The notes under the pieces are model-generated. The model was not told where the DNA came from. It saw nothing but the letters and a program-made list of their open reading frames with translations, and made no database searches. Of a stretch of 64,000 nt of DNA, positions 1,792 to 26,558 are shown piece after piece. The stretch is taken from the NCBI RefSeq assembly GCF_057098645.1, contig NZ_CM169472.1; one strand, 5' to 3'. Position 1 is the first letter of the stretch. Every line of letters begins with the position of its first letter. The translations under genes and the position numbers were made by a program.

Positions 1792-2946
<1,155 letters not shown>

Positions 2947-3051
2947 TCAACAGCGGAGATCCGTTAAGGATCTCCGTGAGACTAATAGAATGCCTGATGC
3001 GCTACGCTCATCAGGCATACAGGACTTCCGCCACTACATTAAGGAAAAGTT

Positions 3052-3411
3052 ATGGTATCCGCACTCATCACTGTCGCCGTTATCGCCTGGTGTGCGCAAC
3101 TGGCCTTAGGCGGCTGGCAAATTTCTCGTTTTAACCGTGCCTTCGACACACTATGCCAGCAAGGGCGGGTTGGCGTGGGCCGTTCCAGCGGGCTCTTTAA
3201 ACCGCGGGTCGTGGTCGCCATCGCCCTGGACGATCAGCAGCGCATCGCCGACACCTTGTTTATGAAAGGACTGACCGTCTTCGCCCGACCGCAAAAAATT
3301 CCCGCAATTACCGGTATGCATGCGGGTGATTTACAGCCCGATGTGATCTTTCCCCATGATCCACTATCACAGAATGCTCTATCATTGGCGCTTAAACTGA
3401 AACGTGGATAA
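3052..3411 (+). CDS. gutM: glucitol operon activator GutM
   Basis: 119-aa ORF with N-terminal hydrophobic segment, positioned between srlD and srlR. Confidence 0.85.
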   Translation: MVSALITVAVIAWCAQLALGGWQISRFNRAFDTLCQQGRVGVGRSSGLFKPRVVVAIALDDQQRIADTLFMKGLTVFARPQKIPAITGMHAGDLQPDVIFPHDPLSQNALSLALKLKRG

Positions 3412-3477
3412 TTTCGTTGTGAATGTTACTTGCTTGCGAAGTTATCATTTTGAAACCTAAATCAGGTAATCACGCCC

Positions 3478-4251
3478 ATGAAACCTCGTCAGCGTCAAGC
3501 CGCCATTCTGGAGTATCTGCAAAAGCAGGGAAAATGCTCGGTTGAAGAATTGGCGCAATATTTTGACACCACAGGCACAACCATTCGCAAAGATCTGGTC
3601 ATTCTGGAACATGCCGGAACCGTCATTCGTACTTATGGCGGAGTGGTGTTGAATAAAGAGGAATCCGATCCGCCTATCGATCATAAAACACTCATCAACA
3701 CCCACAAGAAAGAGCTGATAGCAGAAGCTGCCGTTGGTTTTATTCATGATGGCGATTCGATCATTCTTGATGCTGGCAGTACCGTTTTGCAGATGGTGCC
3801 TCTGCTCTCGCGCTTTAATAACATCACGGTGATGACCAACAGCCTGCATATCGTCAATGCGTTATCTGAACTGGATAATGAACAAACTATCCTGATGCCA
3901 GGCGGAACGTTTCGTAAAAAATCGGCCTCATTTCACGGGCAGCTGGCAGAGAATGCCTTCGAGCATTTCACCTTCGATAAATTGTTTATGGGCACCGACG
4001 GCATCGATCTCAATGCGGGCGTAACCACCTTCAACGAGGTTTATACCGTCAGTAAGGCAATGTGCAATGCCGCGCGCGAAGTGATTTTGATGGCGGACTC
4101 ATCAAAGTTTGGCCGTAAAAGCCCCAACGTAGTTTGCAGTCTTGAAAGCGTCGATAAGCTGATTACCGACGCAGATATCGATCCGGCGTTTCGTCAGGCG
4201 CTGGAAGAGAAAGGGATCGATGTGATCATAACCGGAGAGAGCAATGAGTGA
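3478..4251 (+). CDS. srlR: DeoR-family glucitol operon repressor
   Basis: 257-aa ORF; N-terminal HTH ([20 protein letters not shown]) and DeoR C-terminal sugar-phosphate binding domain. Confidence 0.9.
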
Positions 4252-5209
4252 AGCACTACTGAACGCGGGACGTCAGACGTTAATGCTGGAATTGCAGGAA
4301 GCAAGCCGTTTACCGGAACGTCTGGGCGATGATTTTGTTCGCGCCGCCAATATCATCCTGCACTGCGAAGGCAAAGTGGTGGTTTCGGGAATTGGCAAAT
4401 CGGGCCACATTGGTAAGAAAATCGCCGCAACGCTTGCCAGTACCGGCACACCGGCTTTTTTTGTCCATCCGGCAGAAGCGCTGCACGGCGATCTGGGGAT
4501 GATCGAAAGCCGCGATGTGATGCTGTTTATCTCTTACTCCGGTGGCGCGAAGGAACTGGATCTGATTATTCCGCGTCTGGAAGATAAATCTATCGCGCTG
4601 CTGGCGATGACCGGCAAACCGACGTCACCGCTGGGCCTGGCGGCGAAAGCGGTGCTGGATATCTCCGTAGAACGCGAAGCCTGCCCGATGCACCTTGCGC
4701 CGACCTCCAGCACCGTCAATACCCTGATGATGGGCGACGCACTAGCGATGGCAGTCATGCAGGCGCGCGGTTTTAATGAAGAAGATTTTGCCCGCTCCCA
4801 CCCAGCTGGGGCACTGGGCGCTCGCTTGCTGAATAAAGTGCATCATCTGATGCGTCGTGATGACGCTATCCCACAGGTAGCGTTAACCGCCAGCGTGATG
4901 GATGCGATGCTGGAACTCAGCCGCACCGGTCTGGGGCTGGTGGCGGTATGTGACGCTCAACAACAGGTACAAGGCGTCTTTACCGACGGCGATTTACGTC
5001 GCTGGCTGGTTGGCGGCGGCGCACTCACCACGCCAGTTAATGAAGCGATGACGACAGGCGGTACCACATTACAGGCACAAAGCCGCGCCATCGACGCCAA
5101 AGAGATCCTGATGAAGCGCAAAATCACTGCCGCACCGGTGGTAGATGAAAACGGCAAACTCGTCGGCGCAATTAACCTGCAGGATTTCTATCAGGCCGGG
5201 ATTATTTAA
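4244..5209 (+). CDS. gutQ: D-arabinose 5-phosphate isomerase (SIS + tandem CBS domains)
   Basis: 321-aa ORF; SIS motif [29 protein letters not shown]; overlaps srlR end by 8 nt. Confidence 0.9.
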
Positions 5210-6720
5210 TCCTTCAATCCCAGACGTTTCGCCAGCCGATGCAGGTTGGCGACGTCGGTTTCCAGCATCCGCGCGCAGGCAGCCCAGTTGTGATGATTTT
5301 GTGCCAGTGCCTGACGAATAGTTTCACGCTGGAACGCTTCTGTCGCTTCACGCAGGTTTTGCTTAACAACGGGCACCGCCGCCGCTTCTGGCGGCGGTAA
5401 CGTCACCTCAGGAAAAGCAAAATGTTGCGCCTCAAGAATCACTTCATCGCCGTTGCGGGTGGCTCTCGCCAGCACTACCGCCCGATGAATAGCATGTTCC
5501 AGTTCGCGCACGTTCCCCGGAAAACGATAGTGTTGCAGTAAATTTCGCGCTCCGGCACTTAATACCACGCGGGAGAGCCCCAGCCGCAAACGACACTGCT
5601 CGCAGAAATACCCCGCCAGCAGAATGACATCATCGCCCCGCTCACGCAGCGGCGGCACCGAAAGTGGAAACACGCTCAGGCGGTGGAACAAGTCAGCGCG
5701 AAATCGCCCTGCCAGCACCTCTTCGCGTAAATCGCGGTTAGTCGCCGCCAGCACGCGCACATCGACCCGCAAACTACGGTCATCGCCAACGCGCTGAATA
5801 TCGCCATACTGCAACACCCTCAGCAGCTTGGCCTGCAATGCCAACGACAACTCGCCGATCTCATCGAGAAACAGCGTGCCGTTATCCGCCATTTCAAACT
5901 TCCCACTGCGGTTACTGATAGCGCCAGTAAACGCTCCTTTCACATGCCCGAACAACTCACTTTCCGCCACACTTTCCGGCAGTGCGGCACAGTTGAGATA
6001 GACCAGCGGATTCACCGCCCGTGGCGAGGCCTCATGAATCGCTTTCGCCACCAGCTCCTTACCGGTTCCCGTCTCACCGCTGATCAGGACGTTGAGATCG
6101 GACGCCGCCACAATCTCAATCTCTTTTTTCAGTTGCGTCATGCCTGGCGACAGACCGATCATCTGCGTCTGTTTCACCGCTTCAAACGGCGTGGCATCGC
6201 CTGGCAACATATTCTGGCTTTCCAGTTGCTCAATCAGCAACGCATTGCTTAACGCTCCCGCCGCCAGCGCGGCAATCAGGCGTAACTCTTCGTCACTGAA
6301 AACATCGAACTGATCGGGCTGCATCCCGTCGAGCGTCAATGCGCCGATCAGGTTTTGCCCGGCAAACAATGGCAGACCAACGCAGGCGTGGACCTTCAGA
6401 CTCTCCTGTCCGGGAATCAAACCATCATAGGGATCGGGCAATTCGCTGTCTGCGGGAAAGCGCACCACATCACCCGCGCGGGCAATCGCTTCCAGCCGTG
6501 GATGACCTTCCAGCGCAAAGCGTCTACCGAGTACATCCTTCGCCAGCCCGTCGATGGCAAGCGGAATAAACTGCCGCGAGTCGTAACGTAGCAACGCAGA
6601 CGCATCGCACTCCAGCACCTGACGCAGCGTGGTGATCAGGCGCTGAAAACGATCCTGATGACCAATCCCACGCTGCAATTCGATGGCGATATTCGCCAGC
6701 ACATCAACGGAAAAACTCAT
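5206..6720 (-). CDS. norR: sigma54-dependent nitric-oxide-responsive transcriptional activator NorR
   Basis: ORF track gives 529 aa from 6795; start placed at internal Met (MSFSVDV...) giving 504 aa. GAF domain, AAA+ Walker [15 protein letters not shown] sigma54-contact motif, C-terminal HTH. Confidence 0.92.
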
Positions 6721-6732
6721 CTTTGCCTCACT

Positions 6733-6788
6733 GTCAATTTGACTATAGATATTGTCATATCGACCATTTGATTGATAGTCATTTTGAC
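6733..6788. promoter_or_regulatory. three GT-N7-AC inverted-repeat sites (NorR enhancer-like) in the norR-norV divergent region
   Basis: GTCAATTTGAC 6733-6743, GTCATATCGAC 6754-6764, GTCATTTTGAC 6778-6788, read directly from sequence; matches the known NorR binding-site architecture. Confidence 0.6.
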
Positions 6789-6843
6789 TACTCATTAATG
6801 AGCATAATTTTATTTATAGAGTAAAAACAATCAGATAAAAAAC

Positions 6844-6859
6844 TGGCATGCAATCTGCT
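6844..6859 (+). promoter_or_regulatory. candidate sigma54 (-24/-12) promoter for norVW
   Basis: TGGCATGcaatcTGCT with GG and GC at the canonical spacing, ~50 nt upstream of norV ATG. Confidence 0.55.
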
Positions 6860-6906
6860 ATTAGCAAGACATCTTTTTAGAACACGCTGAATAAATTGAG
6901 GTTGCT

Positions 6907-8346
6907 ATGTCTATTGTGGTGAAAAATAACATTCATTGGGTGGGTCAACGTGACTGGGAAGTGCGTGATTTTCACGGCACGGAATATAAAACGCTGCGCG
7001 GCAGCAGCTACAACAGCTACCTCATCCGCGAAGAAAAAAACGTGCTGATCGACACCGTCGACCATAAATTCAGCCGCGAATTTGTGCAGAACCTGCGTAA
7101 TGAAATCGATCTGGCGGATATCGATTACATCGTGATTAACCATGCAGAAGAGGACCACGCCGGGGCGCTGACCGAACTGATGGCACAAATTCCCGATACG
7201 CCGATCTACTGTACAGCCAACGCTATCGACTCGATAAATGGTCATCACCATCATCCGGAGTGGAATTTTAATGTGGTGAAAACTGGCGACACGCTGGATA
7301 TCGGCAACGGCAAACAGCTCATTTTTGTCGAAACACCAATGCTGCACTGGCCGGACAGCATGATGACTTACCTGACAGGCGACGCGGTGCTGTTCAGTAA
7401 CGATGCTTTCGGTCAGCACTACTGCGACGAGCATCTGTTCAACGATGAAGTGGATCAGACGGAGCTTTTCGAGCAGTGCCAGCGTTACTACGCCAATATC
7501 CTGACGCCGTTCAGCCGCCTGGTAACGCCGAAAATTACCGAGATCCTGGGCTTTAACTTACCAGTCGATATGATAGCGACCTCCCACGGCGTGGTCTGGC
7601 GCGATAACCCGACGCAAATTGTCGAGCTGTACCTGAAGTGGGCCGCTGATTATCAGGAAGACAGAATCACCATTTTCTACGACACCATGTCGAATAACAC
7701 CCGCATGATGGCTGACGCTATCGCCCAGGGGATTGCGGAAACCGACCCACGCGTGGCGGTGAAAATTTTCAACGTCGCCCGAAGCGATAAAAACGAAATC
7801 CTGACCAATGTCTTCCGCTCAAAAGGCGTGCTGGTCGGCACTTCGACGATGAATAACGTGATGATGCCGAAAATCGCCGGGCTGGTGGAGGAGATGACCG
7901 GATTACGCTTCCGTAACAAACGCGCCAGTGCTTTCGGCTCTCACGGCTGGAGCGGCGGTGCGGTGGATCGTCTTTCCACGCGCCTGCAGGATGCGGGTTT
8001 CGAAATGTCGCTTAGCCTGAAAGCGAAATGGCGACCAGACCAGGACGCTCTGGAGTTATGCCGTGAACACGGTCGCGAAATCGCCCGTCAGTGGGCGCTC
8101 GCGCCGCTGCCGCAGAGCACGGTGAATACGGTAGTTAAAGAAGAAACCTCTGCCACCACGACGGCTGACCTCGGCCCACGGATGCAGTGCAGCGTCTGCC
8201 AGTGGATTTACGATCCGGCAAAAGGCGAGCCAATGCAGGACGTTGCGCCAGGAACGCCGTGGAGTGAAGTCCCGGATAACTTCCTCTGCCCGGAATGCTC
8301 CCTCGGCAAAGACGTCTTTGAAGAACTGGCATCGGAGGCAAAATGA
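6907..8346 (+). CDS. norV: anaerobic nitric oxide reductase flavorubredoxin
   Basis: 479-aa ORF; metallo-beta-lactamase-like diiron region (HAEEDHAG), flavodoxin domain, C-terminal rubredoxin [10 protein letters not shown]...CPEC. Confidence 0.93.
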
Positions 8347-9476
8347 GTAACGGCATTGTGATCATTGGTTCGGGCTTCGCCGCCCGCCAACTGGTGAAAA
8401 ATATTCGCAAACAGGACGCCACTATTCCATTAACCCTGATTGCCGCCGACAGCATAGATGAGTACAACAAACCTGACCTCAGCCATGTTATCAGTCAGGG
8501 GCAACGTGCCGACGACCTTACCCGCCAGACGGCGGGTGAATTTGCCGAGCAGTTTAATCTGCACCTGTTTCCGCACACCTGGGTGACGGATATCGATGCC
8601 GAAGCCCGTGTGGTGAAAAGCCAGAATAATCAGTGGCAATACGACAAGCTAGTACTGGCAACCGGTGCCAGTGCCTTTGTCCCGCCTGTGCCTGGGCGTG
8701 AGTTAATGCTGACGTTAAATAGTCAGCAAGAGTATCGCGCCTGTGAAACGCAACTGCGGGATGCCCGACGCGTGTTGATTGTTGGCGGTGGTTTGATTGG
8801 TAGCGAACTGGCGATGGATTTTTGTCGTGCAGGCAAAATGGTTACGCTAATCGACAACGCTGCCAGTATTCTGGCGTCGTTAATGCCACCGGAAGTAAGC
8901 AGTCGCTTGCAGCATCGGTTGACGGAGATGGGCGTTCATCTGCTGTTGAAATCTCAGTTGCAGGGGCTGGAAAAAACGGATTCTGGCATTCTGGCAACGC
9001 TGGACCACCAGCGCAGCATCGAAGTGGATGCGGTAATTGCCGCCACCGGACTGCGCCCGGAAACAGCCCTGGCACGACGCGCCGGGCTGACGATTAATCG
9101 CGGCGTTTGCGTCGATAGTTATCTGCAAACCAGTAATGCCGATATTTACGCGCTGGGCGATTGCGCGGAAATTAACGGTCAGGTATTGCCGTTCCTCCAG
9201 CCGATTCAACTTAGCGGGATGGTGCTGGCAAAAAATCTTCTCGGCAATAACACGCCGCTGAAACTACCGGCGATGCTGGTGAAAATCAAAACGCCGGAAT
9301 TACCGCTGCATCTGGCAGGCGAAACCCAGCGTCAGGATTTACGCTGGCAGATTAATACCGAACGCCAGGGAATGGTGGCGCGCGGCGTTGACGATGCTGA
9401 CCAGCTTCGCGCCTTTGTGGTAAGTGAGGATCGGATGAAAGAGGCATTTGGATTGTTGAAAACATTGCCGATGTAG
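8343..9476 (+). CDS. norW: NADH:flavorubredoxin oxidoreductase
   Basis: 377-aa ORF; N-terminal FAD-binding GxGxxA ([12 protein letters not shown]) and second dinucleotide fold ([14 protein letters not shown]); overlaps norV by 4 nt. Confidence 0.9.
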
Positions 9477-16846: not shown

Positions 16847-16854
16847 GCAACCGT

Positions 16855-16934
16855 GCCGGATGCGGCGTGAACGCCTTATCCGGCCTACATGTCGCACGAA
16901 CTATGCAGGCCCGATAAGCACTGCGCATCGGGCA
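16855..16934. repeat. REP palindromic unit(s) downstream of ascB
   Basis: GCCGGATGCGGCGTGAACGCCTTATCCGGCCTAC followed by a degenerate second unit; explains artefact ORF 16704-16928. Confidence 0.75.
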
Positions 16935-16959
16935 ATCTGGAGTTTGGCATCAGTCAAAA

Positions 16960-17379
16960 TCAAAGAAACCATTCCGGCTTAACGCCAAATCGGGCTGAAA
17001 GTGCCTTAATGTGGGATATTGTCAGGGATCGTTGTCCAGACAAAATCTGACTGACCAGGGATTTAGAGCCGATTTCGTTCTTCAAATCCGCATAGGTCAG
17101 ATTATGTTGATCAATCAACGTGCGAAGTAACGCCACGCCAACCGGCATTGCCGCAACGGCTTTGTCGAACTCTGCAAACTTTTCGTTGTTGTTTTCATAC
17201 TCTGCAATGCGGCTCGCCAGAAAGTCGATAAGTGGATTGGTGTCATCTTCTTCAATCAAATATTCGACCAGTTCCAGTGCTTCACGATAATCATCTTCTG
17301 AGTCACTGCCTCCCAGAAAGGGGACTGCATTGACCAGTTCTCTTGTTGCTTTAACAGCGCGTGCAGCATTAGCAGTCAT
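16960..17379 (-). CDS. HigA-like antitoxin (HTH, XRE family)
   Basis: 139-aa ORF; C-terminal HTH (SKSLVSQILSGQRSLTISHIKALSARFGV); 4-nt overlap with upstream toxin ORF; toxin-first order typical of higBA. Confidence 0.75.
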   Translation of the reverse strand: MTANAARAVKATRELVNAVPFLGGSDSEDDYREALELVEYLIEEDDTNPLIDFLASRIAEYENNNEKFAEFDKAVAAMPVGVALLRTLIDQHNLTYADLKNEIGSKSLVSQILSGQRSLTISHIKALSARFGVKPEWFL

Positions 17380-17687
17380 TCTTTGTTCTCTCTGTAGTAA
17401 CGTGTCAGTTTGTCATACTCTGCGTGATTCGTTATGTGCTTCACAAAGAACCGCTTATTAACAAAGTTTATGTAGGCAATAACCCTAAGATTGTTCCCGC
17501 CGACATCCAGAACGTACCATTTGTTGCGATATTTAAAATTGTCGAGGTTGGGAAACGCCGTTCGCATTTCTTCTGGCGTAGAAAAATCCGTTTCCTTAAT
17601 AACCCGATACAATGCCTGAAGAGCCAGAGCGTCGTTAGGATATTTACGCGCAGACTCTTCAAATGGCGCTTTAGAAATGATGTGCAT
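17376..17687 (-). CDS. HigB-like toxin (RelE/ParE superfamily mRNA interferase)
   Basis: 103-aa basic ORF with DNFKY and VGGNNLRV motifs shared with HigB-type toxins; coupled to antitoxin. Confidence 0.75.
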   Translation of the reverse strand: MHIISKAPFEESARKYPNDALALQALYRVIKETDFSTPEEMRTAFPNLDNFKYRNKWYVLDVGGNNLRVIAYINFVNKRFFVKHITNHAEYDKLTRYYRENKE

Positions 17688-17848: not shown

Positions 17849-18622
17849 TCAGTTCTGATTCACCCCATCAAGCACATCCCCCTTTATCAAGCAACGTTGC
17901 GTCAGCGACAGATCTTCCGTTTGTGTGTCGCGCCCGGCGATGGGTTTGAGGACGAGTTTACGGTTGGGGGTATAAGTAAAACGCGTGAGCGCGGGATAGC
18001 TTAACTTGCCAAACCAGCCGTGAACACGCTGCCATTTGGCGTCTTTTACCTGATACAGACTGGTTATCCAGTAACCAGAATTAAACTGCATATCCAGCAA
18101 TTGCGTGTGACCATTGCCTTGTAAATCCAGCAAATCATCTACGCCAGTTTTGCTTGCAGTGTAGAATCCCCAGGGTTCAAAGACACAGGGACGGCCTTCG
18201 TGCGTGAACGTCATGAGGATTAAATGTGCATAGGGCGCCAGACCATTACCGGCACTTGGCAACCAGATAACCAGATCCTGAATGCCGTTACGATCCAGAT
18301 CGGCGCGATAGAGCTGCCCTTTGCCCGCCATATTTGCCAGCAACCCCACTGGCACCGTCCAGGATTTACCCGCGAGGTCTTTAGCGGTTAATTGCCAGTA
18401 ATCCTCTTCATTTGGCATCTTCTCAAGCGTCACGCCAGCAACGCCGATTTTTCTAAAATGCCAAGTTTGCTCGGTATAATAAGGCATGGTCAGGAGAGGT
18501 TTCAGCGCCCGCTTTTGCGCATATTCGCTGCCACTCATTGGCAGATATTCGGTAAAGCTGGTGGCCAGTGCAGACTGCACTAAGCTCAATAAAAAAGCGC
18601 ACATCCCTGTTCTGATGTTCAA
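17849..18622 (-). CDS. exported protein of unknown function, possible FG-GAP/VCBS-like calcium-binding loops
   Basis: 257-aa ORF with N-terminal signal peptide (MNIRTGMCAFLLSLVQSALA); motifs ADLDRNGIQDLV and LDLQGNGHTQLLD; starts 24 nt downstream of hycI stop on the same strand. Confidence 0.7.
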   Translation of the reverse strand: MNIRTGMCAFLLSLVQSALATSFTEYLPMSGSEYAQKRALKPLLTMPYYTEQTWHFRKIGVAGVTLEKMPNEEDYWQLTAKDLAGKSWTVPVGLLANMAGKGQLYRADLDRNGIQDLVIWLPSAGNGLAPYAHLILMTFTHEGRPCVFEPWGFYTASKTGVDDLLDLQGNGHTQLLDMQFNSGYWITSLYQVKDAKWQRVHGWFGKLSYPALTRFTYTPNRKLVLKPIAGRDTQTEDLSLTQRCLIKGDVLDGVNQN

Positions 18623-18646
18623 TTCCCTGAATTCCCTAATGAAGAA

Positions 18647-19114
18647 TTATTCTTCCACCGCTAACTGCGCAAATCCGCCGTTCCCTTCCCAGCCTTCCAG
18701 TCGTTGATAAACGGTTTCTACCGCATCTTTAATCGGCTGGGTCATCGGGTAGTAAAAGCCGACGATATCCGGCTGGATGCCGAGGAAAATCACTTCGCCA
18801 ATATCTTCTTTCAACTGATCGATAAGGTAGTTCAACGGCATGTTATGGGTAGTCATCATAAACATCTCGGCGATATCATCCGGGTCGATGATGCGGATCT
18901 CGCCGGGGTTTAGCCCCATATCAGTGGCGTCGACAATCAGCAGTCGTGTCGGGCGCAGTTCACGGATAGCGACAATGTCGTTTTCCGGTGCGCTACCGCC
19001 GTCAATCACCACCCAGTTACCTTTCGGCGCGGCGGCGCACTTTTCCGCCAGCAGCGGACCTGCGCCATCATCACCCATCATGCTATTGCCAACACAGAGT
19101 AAAACGTCAGTCAC
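18647..19114 (-). CDS. hycI: hydrogenase 3 maturation endopeptidase
   Basis: 155-aa ORF; N-terminal GNSMMGDDGAGP motif of hydrogenase maturation proteases; last gene of hyc operon. Confidence 0.9.
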   Translation of the reverse strand: MTDVLLCVGNSMMGDDGAGPLLAEKCAAAPKGNWVVIDGGSAPENDIVAIRELRPTRLLIVDATDMGLNPGEIRIIDPDDIAEMFMMTTHNMPLNYLIDQLKEDIGEVIFLGIQPDIVGFYYPMTQPIKDAVETVYQRLEGWEGNGGFAQLAVEE

Positions 19115-19517
19115 GCAGTCTCCTCACCATCAAATAGATGGCGTTTTCCTGATGAATATCATGCAGCATACTTAACAGCATTGTACTCCATTCCTGCTGC
19201 TGCGAAGTTTGCGCTGCCCGGGCTTTATCGAATGCATTGGCCAGCATCGGCACATGGTTAATGTCGATGACGATCTCACCATATTTCGGCACACCTTCCA
19301 TTTTGCGGCGGGCTTCGCTGCCCGCCTCCAGAGTGGCAATCCATGCCAGATATTCATCCCACGGGCAGGTGAGCGCCGCTTCCAGGCAATCGATAACCCC
19401 AAGGTGGTGACCAATCGCCAGGCTGTAATAGACCACCTGCTGCGCCTCGGCGGGCGTGGCATCGTTCTCATCAATAAATTTACGGCTCAGTTGACTGAAC
19501 ACCACCTTTTCACTCAT
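19107..19517 (-). CDS. hycH: formate hydrogenlyase maturation protein HycH
   Basis: 136-aa ORF in conserved operon position; 8-nt overlap with hycI. Confidence 0.88.
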
Positions 19518-26541: not shown

Positions 26542-26558
26542 AAGCATTTTTTGTGCCA
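26542..26558 (-). promoter_or_regulatory. candidate sigma54 promoter for hyc operon
   Basis: Minus strand reads TGGCACaaaaaaTGCTT with canonical GG/GC spacing, ~35 nt upstream of hycA start. Confidence 0.5.

Follow-up and report, generated by a model that had tools for sequence, protein, structure and literature searches.

In Salmonella Typhimurium LT2, the genes STM2853 to STM2844 ("hycABCDEFGHI-") were grouped as one sigma54/FhlA-dependent operon, whose tenth gene, STM2844, is an unnamed open reading frame (ORF) between hycI and hydN (Samuels et al. 2013, PMC3844500). At the protein level, a second point of reference is X-Tfi(XAC2610), a type IV secretion system (T4SS) immunity protein of Xanthomonas citri, in which residues 151-159 form a Ca2+ loop and loop 165-173 bears Tyr170, required for inhibiting the glycoside hydrolase family 19 (GH19) effector XAC2609 (PMC10933484). 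Here, a 257-codon ORF was analyzed that lies behind hycI in a 64,000-nt stretch of contig NZ_CM169472.1 (RefSeq assembly GCF_057098645.1), which at its full length is referred to below as the window. The ORF is a genuine accessory gene and probably closes the hyc (formate hydrogenlyase, FHL; hydrogenase 3, Hyd-3) transcription unit as its tenth cistron. In comparison with the hyc operon of E. coli K-12 and with STM2853-STM2844 of LT2, it lies on the common strand, 24-26 nt after hycI and with no terminator in between; in contrast to the nine canonical genes, among which it does not count, it is absent from K-12 MG1655 and O157:H7 Sakai and has a product predicted to be exported rather than cytoplasmic or membrane-integral. 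It is therefore neither present wherever the operon is found nor needed for FHL. The features of the unit, in window positions, are the following.

17849 to 18622, minus strand: 257-codon ORF with a TTG start, predicted to encode an exported FG-GAP-like protein (a shorter automatic call starts at ATG 18604).
18623 to 18646, minus strand: hycI-ORF junction of 24 nt, with an AGGGAA Shine-Dalgarno-like sequence and without hairpin or terminator, conserved in Escherichia.
18647 to 19114, minus strand: hycI, hydrogenase 3 maturation protease, the upstream cistron.
26543 to 26558, minus strand: sigma54 -24/-12 element TGGCACAAAAAATGCT, presumed to be P_hyc for a hycA-I plus ORF transcript on account of its position and known hyc biology.

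The order of genes upstream of the ORF on the same strand was hycI, hycH, hycG, hycF and hycE. In a consensus scan, the junction contained no terminator-like site and hycI no promoter-like site on the minus strand, and the RNA of the junction did not fold better than shuffled sequence (z = -0.29). Within the window, sigma54 -24/-12 elements were restricted to the divergent hyc/hyp pair at approximately 26.5-26.7 kb, none being located near the ORF. In LT2, the ratios of expression between wild type and rpoN mutant were 9.4 for STM2844, 12 for hycI and 6.4 for hycH (Additional file 1 of PMC3844500). The mapped hydN sigma54 promoter, TGGCACGATTCGTGTATA (PMC3844500), lies 3' of the stop codon of the ORF at the Salmonella locus and therefore cannot be the source of the STM2844 signal, of which read-through from P_hyc is the simplest explanation. 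The preliminary description of this locus, made from the letters alone, had placed the start of the ORF 24 nt past the hycI stop codon on the same strand with no terminator between them, and had proposed an extra terminal hyc gene, putatively co-transcribed. The coordinates, consensus scan and RNA folding bore out the former, and the latter gained support from the short gap, the lack of a terminator, the synteny across enterics described below and the 9.4-fold sigma54 dependence of STM2844.

According to the proposed mechanism, the ORF, for which no promoter of its own was found, would be read through from the sigma54/FhlA-dependent P_hyc, so that its product would be made under fermentative, formate-replete conditions, at a level kept low by a TTG start and a mediocre Shine-Dalgarno sequence. 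Expression from a promoter in the 3' part of hycI, independent of hyc and with adjacency devoid of regulatory meaning, was considered quite unlikely. It would fit the opposite-strand symE that parts hycI from the gene in Klebsiella spallanzanii and the REP-like element in the Phytobacter junction, since read-through is not obligatory in at least these two species; against it stand the scan results given above (neither a minus-strand sigma70-like site within hycI nor a sigma54 site near the ORF), a gap of 24-26 nt, too short for a promoter, and the resemblance of the sigma54 dependence of STM2844 to that of hycH and hycI.

The position of the start codon was also analyzed. E. coli O145 strain RM9872 is 99.9% identical to the window over the ORF stretch, and there the NCBI Prokaryotic Genome Annotation Pipeline (PGAP) calls a "hypothetical protein" of 252 codons (WP_001400787.1) from the ATG at 18604. 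The TTG at 18622 appeared better supported. Strain A28 carries an ATG exactly at the TTG codon of the window, with PGAP calling 257 aa in that genome; the aligned codon is GTG in Phytobacter and Met in Klebsiella; three of the four substitutions in the six codons separating both candidate starts are synonymous; and a basic n-region (MNIR) arises solely in the longer form. Taken together, these observations led us to prefer the TTG. The adjacent hycI has 155 codons in the window and 156 in K-12, IAI1, A28 and MS 16-3, a difference caused by a 3-nt indel within the run of C-terminal Glu codons immediately 5' of the stop codon (18647-18660), which is TAA or TAG depending on the allele.

Orthologues of the ORF were found after hycI in several enteric genera:

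Escherichia albertii: 80-82% identity, directly after hycI.
Salmonella enterica: about 70% identity, 269 aa, after a 26-nt gap behind hycI and before hydN-hypF.
Phytobacter diazotrophicus: 63% identity, after hycI, the pair lying beside hypA without hycA-H.
Klebsiella spallanzanii: 62% identity, after hycI with a symE insertion between them.

This distribution indicates that the gene is ancestral to the enteric clade and that the K-12 arrangement is derived. In Phytobacter diazotrophicus DSM 17806, hycI and the ORF lie directly opposite hypA, with the REP-like element in their junction (6837-8723 of the retrieved locus), and the pair outlived the loss or relocation of the other hyc genes at that locus. 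Within E. coli, a copy with at least 80% coverage was present in 1462 of 5426 complete genomes, always chromosomal and single, the ORF being absent or truncated in approximately 73% of them. About 840 further genomes retained only a remnant beside hycI; in sequence type 131 (ST131), a stub of 61 codons remained, and only higA and the truncated ORF are left at the locus. Carriers included O145 enterohemorrhagic E. coli, IAI1 and 55989, and the gene was widespread in Salmonella. An origin in a mobile element was rejected: the two matches labelled as plasmids corresponded to megabase-sized records (4.8 Mb and 0.73 Mb), and all E. coli copies were the single chromosomal ones just mentioned.

The absence from K-12, where the preliminary description had likewise recognized no counterpart, could be traced to a deletion: the ascB-hycI spacer of K-12 measures just 158 bp and carries a scar. 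The end-points are two copies of a direct repeat:

17874 to 17880: ACATCCC, copy 1, at the 3' end of the ORF.
18601 to 18607: ACATCCC, copy 2, at the 5' end of the ORF.

K-12 MG1655 and Sakai share a common junction, …ATCAAGAACATCCC joined to TGTCCTGAT…, from which approximately 727 bp of the ORF have been removed (positions 2030-2073 of the retrieved K-12 locus and 6262-6384 of that of Sakai). In both, the last ~30 nt of the ORF are joined at ACATCCC to its first codons, a structure that matches a deletion between the two repeats. Finding the same scar in phylogroups A and E would imply one old deletion allele that spread, as opposed to independent losses. K-12 is the strain in which a fully active FHL was defined, and it makes the complex without the ORF. 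The product would lie outside the FHL enzyme, which faces the cytoplasm, and would be dispensable for it, given that neither K-12 nor O157:H7 has the gene.

The four E. coli alleles of the ORF that were compared showed synonymous divergence (dS) of 0.15-0.54 and nonsynonymous divergence (dN) of 0.05-0.09, with dN/dS of 0.16-0.32, while dS was at most 0.18 and dN/dS at most 0.11 in the neighboring hycH, hycG and hycF. These values point to selection that is purifying, but relaxed with respect to the hyc genes. Together with 220 homologous clusters and the wide distribution, they identify the ORF as a real gene, more than a chance reading frame. Its alleles, between 85% and 99.9% identical at the nucleotide level, formed unusually deep mosaic lineages, as exemplified in the mosaic central region (residues ~70-160) by NEEDYWQLTAKD vs. 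NDDSEWQLNGKD and by WLPSAGNGLAPYAH vs. WRGISGNGLAPNAF. Synonymous divergence climbed toward the ORF along 17849-19517, from dS of at most 0.07 in hycH and up to ~0.30 in hycI to as much as 0.54 in the ORF. The rising divergence and the mosaic alleles could reflect old balanced or imported haplotypes.

The enteric form might instead be a decaying, functionless remnant, passively transcribed behind hycI and awaiting deletion, which we regarded as unlikely. A domain of ~100 aa of the wider family is missing from it, its dN/dS exceeds that of the hyc genes, the losses and truncations in E. coli are those quantified above, and the locus is a hotspot with higBA, parDE, symE, REP elements and IS621. 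Many Salmonella copies are, moreover, frameshifted or fused: in some S. enterica lineages a frameshift splits the gene into ORFs of 99 and 166 aa (2692-3501 of one retrieved locus), and in other Salmonella a protein of 343 aa annotated as HycI consists of HycI fused to the C-terminal part of the ORF product. On the other side, a dN/dS of 0.16-0.32 at dS of up to 0.54 implies long-term purifying selection on intact alleles; frame, signal peptide and all core motifs persist in Escherichia, Salmonella, Klebsiella and Phytobacter, whose proteins are 60-70% identical; thousands of contigs carry the 269-aa form of Salmonella; and the AlphaFold2 model corresponds to a complete, confident domain.

An exhaustive HMMER search against 1.84 billion representatives yielded the 220 homologous clusters (E ≤ 1e-3), which came mainly from soil and peat metagenomes, Acidobacteria, Thiotrichales, Pseudomonas and some other Enterobacterales. 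Proteins of 330-360 aa make up most of these clusters; they carry an additional domain of ~100 aa at the C-terminus (columns ~290-410 of the family alignment), terminating in a conserved CSPE(L/W)(L/I)W motif. In the clade of Escherichia, Salmonella, Klebsiella and Phytobacter this domain has been entirely lost. The short form arose in an ancestor of these four genera from a longer, free-standing family, by loss of the C-terminal domain and capture behind hycI, and was followed by repeated later losses. The core motifs of the family were Y-L-P-L, A-D-L-D-x-N-G-x-x-D, P-T-x-G-N-G-L-A-P, F-D-x-x-G-R-P, D-L-x-D-L-x-x-D-G-x-A-E-L, D-G-Y-W-I-T-x-L-Y and Y-P-L-x-T-R-F-T. The window protein had no Pfam match even at E ≤ 10, nor any match among the NCBIfam and PADLOC models. 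The FG-GAP_3 model (PF13517) matched 20 of 56 relatives at E ≤ 0.1 and 3 of 56 at E ≤ 1e-3, and the automatic UniProt annotation of more distant homologues reads "VCBS repeat-containing" or "FG-GAP repeat".

Four elements could be distinguished in the window protein:

18560 to 18622, minus strand: signal peptide MNIRTGMCAFLLSLVQSALA followed by T, of Sec/signal peptidase I (SPase I) type and without lipobox, as read from the sequence.
18275 to 18301, minus strand: loop 1, DLDRNGIQD, residues 108-116, canonical DxDxNGxxD of Ca-binding type, aligned with the XAC2610 Ca2+ loop 151-159.
18233 to 18250, minus strand: GNGLAP loop, residues 125-130, nearly invariant in the family, aligned with XAC2610 loop 165-173.
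18101 to 18127, minus strand: loop 2, DLQGNGHTQ, residues 166-174, degenerate FG-GAP-like (family consensus DLxxDGxAE).

Cleavage is predicted at an A-x-A site, between MNIRTGMCAFLLSLVQSALA and TS, and the Sec-type signal peptide would export the product to the periplasm. When a hydrophobic segment was defined as an N-terminal 10-mer with mean Kyte-Doolittle hydropathy of at least 1.8, it was found in 49 of the 53 family members starting with Met, in most of which K or R precedes the segment and a conserved Y-x-P-L motif follows within a few residues. A lipoprotein was rejected as a candidate, the signal peptide having no lipobox before a Cys. In the long forms, the Cys of the CSPE motif close to the C-terminus is conserved and is accompanied, in many of them, by another Cys earlier in the additional domain; the two might form a disulfide, a possibility that was counted toward export. 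In loop 1, the D, D, G and D positions were invariant or nearly so across 56 diverse homologues. In loop 2 of E. coli, Q occupies positions 3 and 9, two acidic ligand positions are gone, and the loop is probably a poor Ca site.

A further comparison is with the FG-GAP/VCBS proteins (PF01839, PF13517; integrin alpha N-terminal propellers, PVL lectin, CRTAC1), with which the window protein shares a DxDxNGxxD Ca-type loop followed by a hydrophobic strand, and whose integrin alphaV loops were the best matches of family profile A2 among sequences of the Protein Data Bank (PDB; E ~0.3). Unlike those proteins, it has two loops only, one of them degenerate, and no Pfam match, and it does not form the usual seven-bladed beta-propeller: with ~236 aa in its mature form, it cannot. 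An AlphaFold2 model built on a 56-sequence alignment was all-beta (predicted local distance difference test 93, predicted template modelling score 0.89) and is consistent with a small beta domain that resembles part of a propeller and falls short of a full one. Thus, of what had been suspected beforehand, export was corroborated by a signal peptide conserved family-wide and by the UniProt name of the enteric orthologues, "Periplasmic or exported protein". Both FG-GAP/VCBS-like loops are present, the first canonical and nearly invariant and the second degenerate. The anticipated Ca-binding or beta-propeller fold held for the all-beta, partial-propeller-like character of the prediction and failed for the full propeller.

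The linkage to hycI raises the alternative of a periplasmic accessory factor tied to [NiFe]-hydrogenase or FHL, acting at the periplasmic face of HycC/HycD, in nickel or H2/formate handling, or with uptake hydrogenases. In its favor, linkage to hycI is tight in Escherichia, E. albertii, Salmonella and Phytobacter, and in Klebsiella spallanzanii the gene still lies near hycI; Phytobacter keeps hycI and the ORF together though hycA-H are gone from the locus; and the gene is co-regulated with hyc in Salmonella. Furthermore, Thiolinea disciformis DSM 14473 has a long-form homologue of 326 aa (35% identity) 95 nt after hypF-hypC-hypD-hypE on the same strand (3050-8909 of the retrieved locus), the only non-enteric member beside hydrogenase genes among ~85 loci examined; this linkage may be a coincidence or an independent capture. 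Loci were retrieved with family alignments A1 and A4 as seeds, A2 and A3 being too diverse for seeding. HypA-F, HycE, HycG and HycI were then compared by tblastn with 580 kb of family loci, among them 76 metagenomic ones (~40 of at least 5 kb), three from Acidobacteria metagenome-assembled genomes, one Thiothrix contig and the two closest long-form enterobacterial relatives, one located after menF and the other after fruBKA. Besides Thiolinea and one Salmonella locus, no hyp or hyc gene was matched in these loci. Nor was any neighbor conserved across more than 80 family loci, the all-vs-all clustering of flanking ORFs giving antisense artefacts and small groups of related contigs. Family-wide linkage to hydrogenase was consequently rejected as a general property, leaving a lineage-specific enteric capture and one possibly coincidental case. 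These results, the lack of the gene in K-12 and O157:H7 Sakai, and the contrast between a cytoplasmic FHL catalytic arm and an exported ORF product make a hydrogenase role improbable. Among the alternatives to a tenth hyc cistron encoding a periplasmic binding protein, this one nevertheless carried the most weight, followed by the decaying remnant and then by independent expression.

Regarding what the tenth cistron might do, the structural relatives of the predicted model, with the value obtained for each, were:

XAC2610 (4QTQ), Xanthomonas T4SS immunity protein: 6.5.
PVL, FG-GAP propeller lectin: 6.1.
CarG, carbapenem intrinsic-resistance protein: 5.9.
PliI-Ah, periplasmic i-type lysozyme inhibitor: 5.5.
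Integrin alpha chains, FG-GAP propellers: about 4.

XAC2610 was the closest solved structure to the predicted model. It also emerged at the sequence level: the weak PDB sequence matches of the family overall were confined to integrin FG-GAP loops and XAC2610, and profile A3 had exactly one match among all PDB sequences, XAC2610 (4qtq_A), with an E value of 0.44 that is not significant alone. An hhalign comparison of the family with a 59-residue segment of XAC2610, selected beforehand, gave 84% probability over 45 columns. With the register fixed by the tyrosine at chain position 117, both HMMER and hhalign placed the family ADLDxNGxxD on the XAC2610 Ca2+ loop and GNGLAP on the loop of Tyr170. 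The two proteins may share a small periplasmic all-beta partial-propeller fold, and they align over a 45-residue module in which a Ca2+ loop, D-x-(D/N)-x-(N/D)-G-x-x-D, leads into a hydrophobic strand with a terminal W and then a G-N-x-x-x-P loop; the Ca loop and the contact loop are the most conserved part in both families. By contrast, an N-terminal beta segment of ~80 residues, as well as the C-terminal domain of the long forms, have no counterpart in XAC2610, and PliI and Tsi1 carry Ser at the inhibitory position, which is Gly127 in the ORF product.

The product would be a compact all-beta, partial-propeller-like domain stabilized by one FG-GAP-type Ca2+ loop (DLDRNGIQD), and its most likely role, suggested tentatively and itself doubtful, is that of a binding or inhibitor protein in the periplasm, belonging to the structural class of XAC2610, PliI, Tsi1 and CarG. 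Its contact surface would be the invariant GNGLAP loop beside the Ca loop, directed for instance against a peptidoglycan hydrolase. A more specific and less probable version, by analogy with those inhibitors, would make the family a remote, effector-less branch of XAC2610/PliI/Tsi1 and the enteric gene an orphan periplasmic inhibitor of peptidoglycan hydrolases (lysozyme-like) wired to the FhlA/formate regulon, which would protect the cell wall during gut fermentation; its variable presence and deep alleles would then stem from conflict with host lysozymes or competitor effectors.

Several observations weigh against the interpretation of the ORF as a functional tenth cistron with such a role. 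Frequent loss and truncation in enterics, and a constraint relaxed relative to the hyc genes, are both signs of marginal function. The expression evidence comes from the Salmonella LT2 literature and not from E. coli; STM2844 is unconfirmed as an intact orthologue, S. enterica being absent from the representative-genome scan and many Salmonella copies being frameshifted, a doubt that touches the protein and not the evidence of transcription. Foldseek returned nothing from the PDB at E ≤ 1e-3, and to this must be added the limits of the A3 and hhalign matches given above. Three differences from XAC2610 point in the same direction: the inhibitory Tyr170 is replaced by Gly127 of GNGLAP, there is an SPase I signal peptide instead of a lipobox, and no effector or toxin gene of that class adjoins, the neighbors being hycI and higBA. 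Finally, rapid co-evolution is the usual pattern of immunity proteins, and a loop kept invariant between Acidobacteria and E. coli departs from it.

Downstream, the ORF is bordered by a toxin-antitoxin pair that is not part of the gene, with convergent ascB beyond it:

16960 to 17687, minus strand: higB (17376-17687) and higA, a helix-turn-helix gene (16960-17379), with a promoter-like site at 17786-17758.

No terminator was predicted between the ORF and higB. A HigB/HigA pair also occupies this position in E. albertii, and in Klebsiella spallanzanii its place is taken by parDE and two symE genes; toxin-antitoxin modules have a hotspot in the hycI-ascB/hydN interval. The first ~107 nt after ascB (16847-16953) correspond to a repeat of REP/BIME type (repetitive extragenic palindrome/bacterial interspersed mosaic element) with tens of thousands of matches in E. 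coli genomes, a 1.8-kb query reaching 164,868 places with a median of 32 per genome. In K-12, this repeat abuts the ORF scar directly.

Thousands of genomes already carried an annotation of the ORF, as hypothetical or as "periplasmic or exported protein", and the counterpart in Salmonella had been listed with the operon. The new elements are the microhomology deletion scar common to K-12 and O157:H7, the definition of the family and of how its short form originated, the failure to find hydrogenase linkage across the family, and the convergent structural and sequence link to an XAC2610-type inhibitor module. The textbook nine-gene hyc operon of K-12 is a deletion product, the ancestral enteric operon having had a tenth, exported cistron that is kept in about one quarter of E. 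coli, which is relevant to work on FHL regulation, to engineered H2 production and to comparisons between pathogens and K-12. For a widespread family that has no Pfam or NCBIfam model, a testable proposal is put forward, namely a Ca2+-stabilized XAC2610-like binding module using the GNGLAP loop. If the inhibitor idea were false, the gene would be an ordinary strain-variable passenger; if true, it would tie fermentative metabolism to envelope defence.

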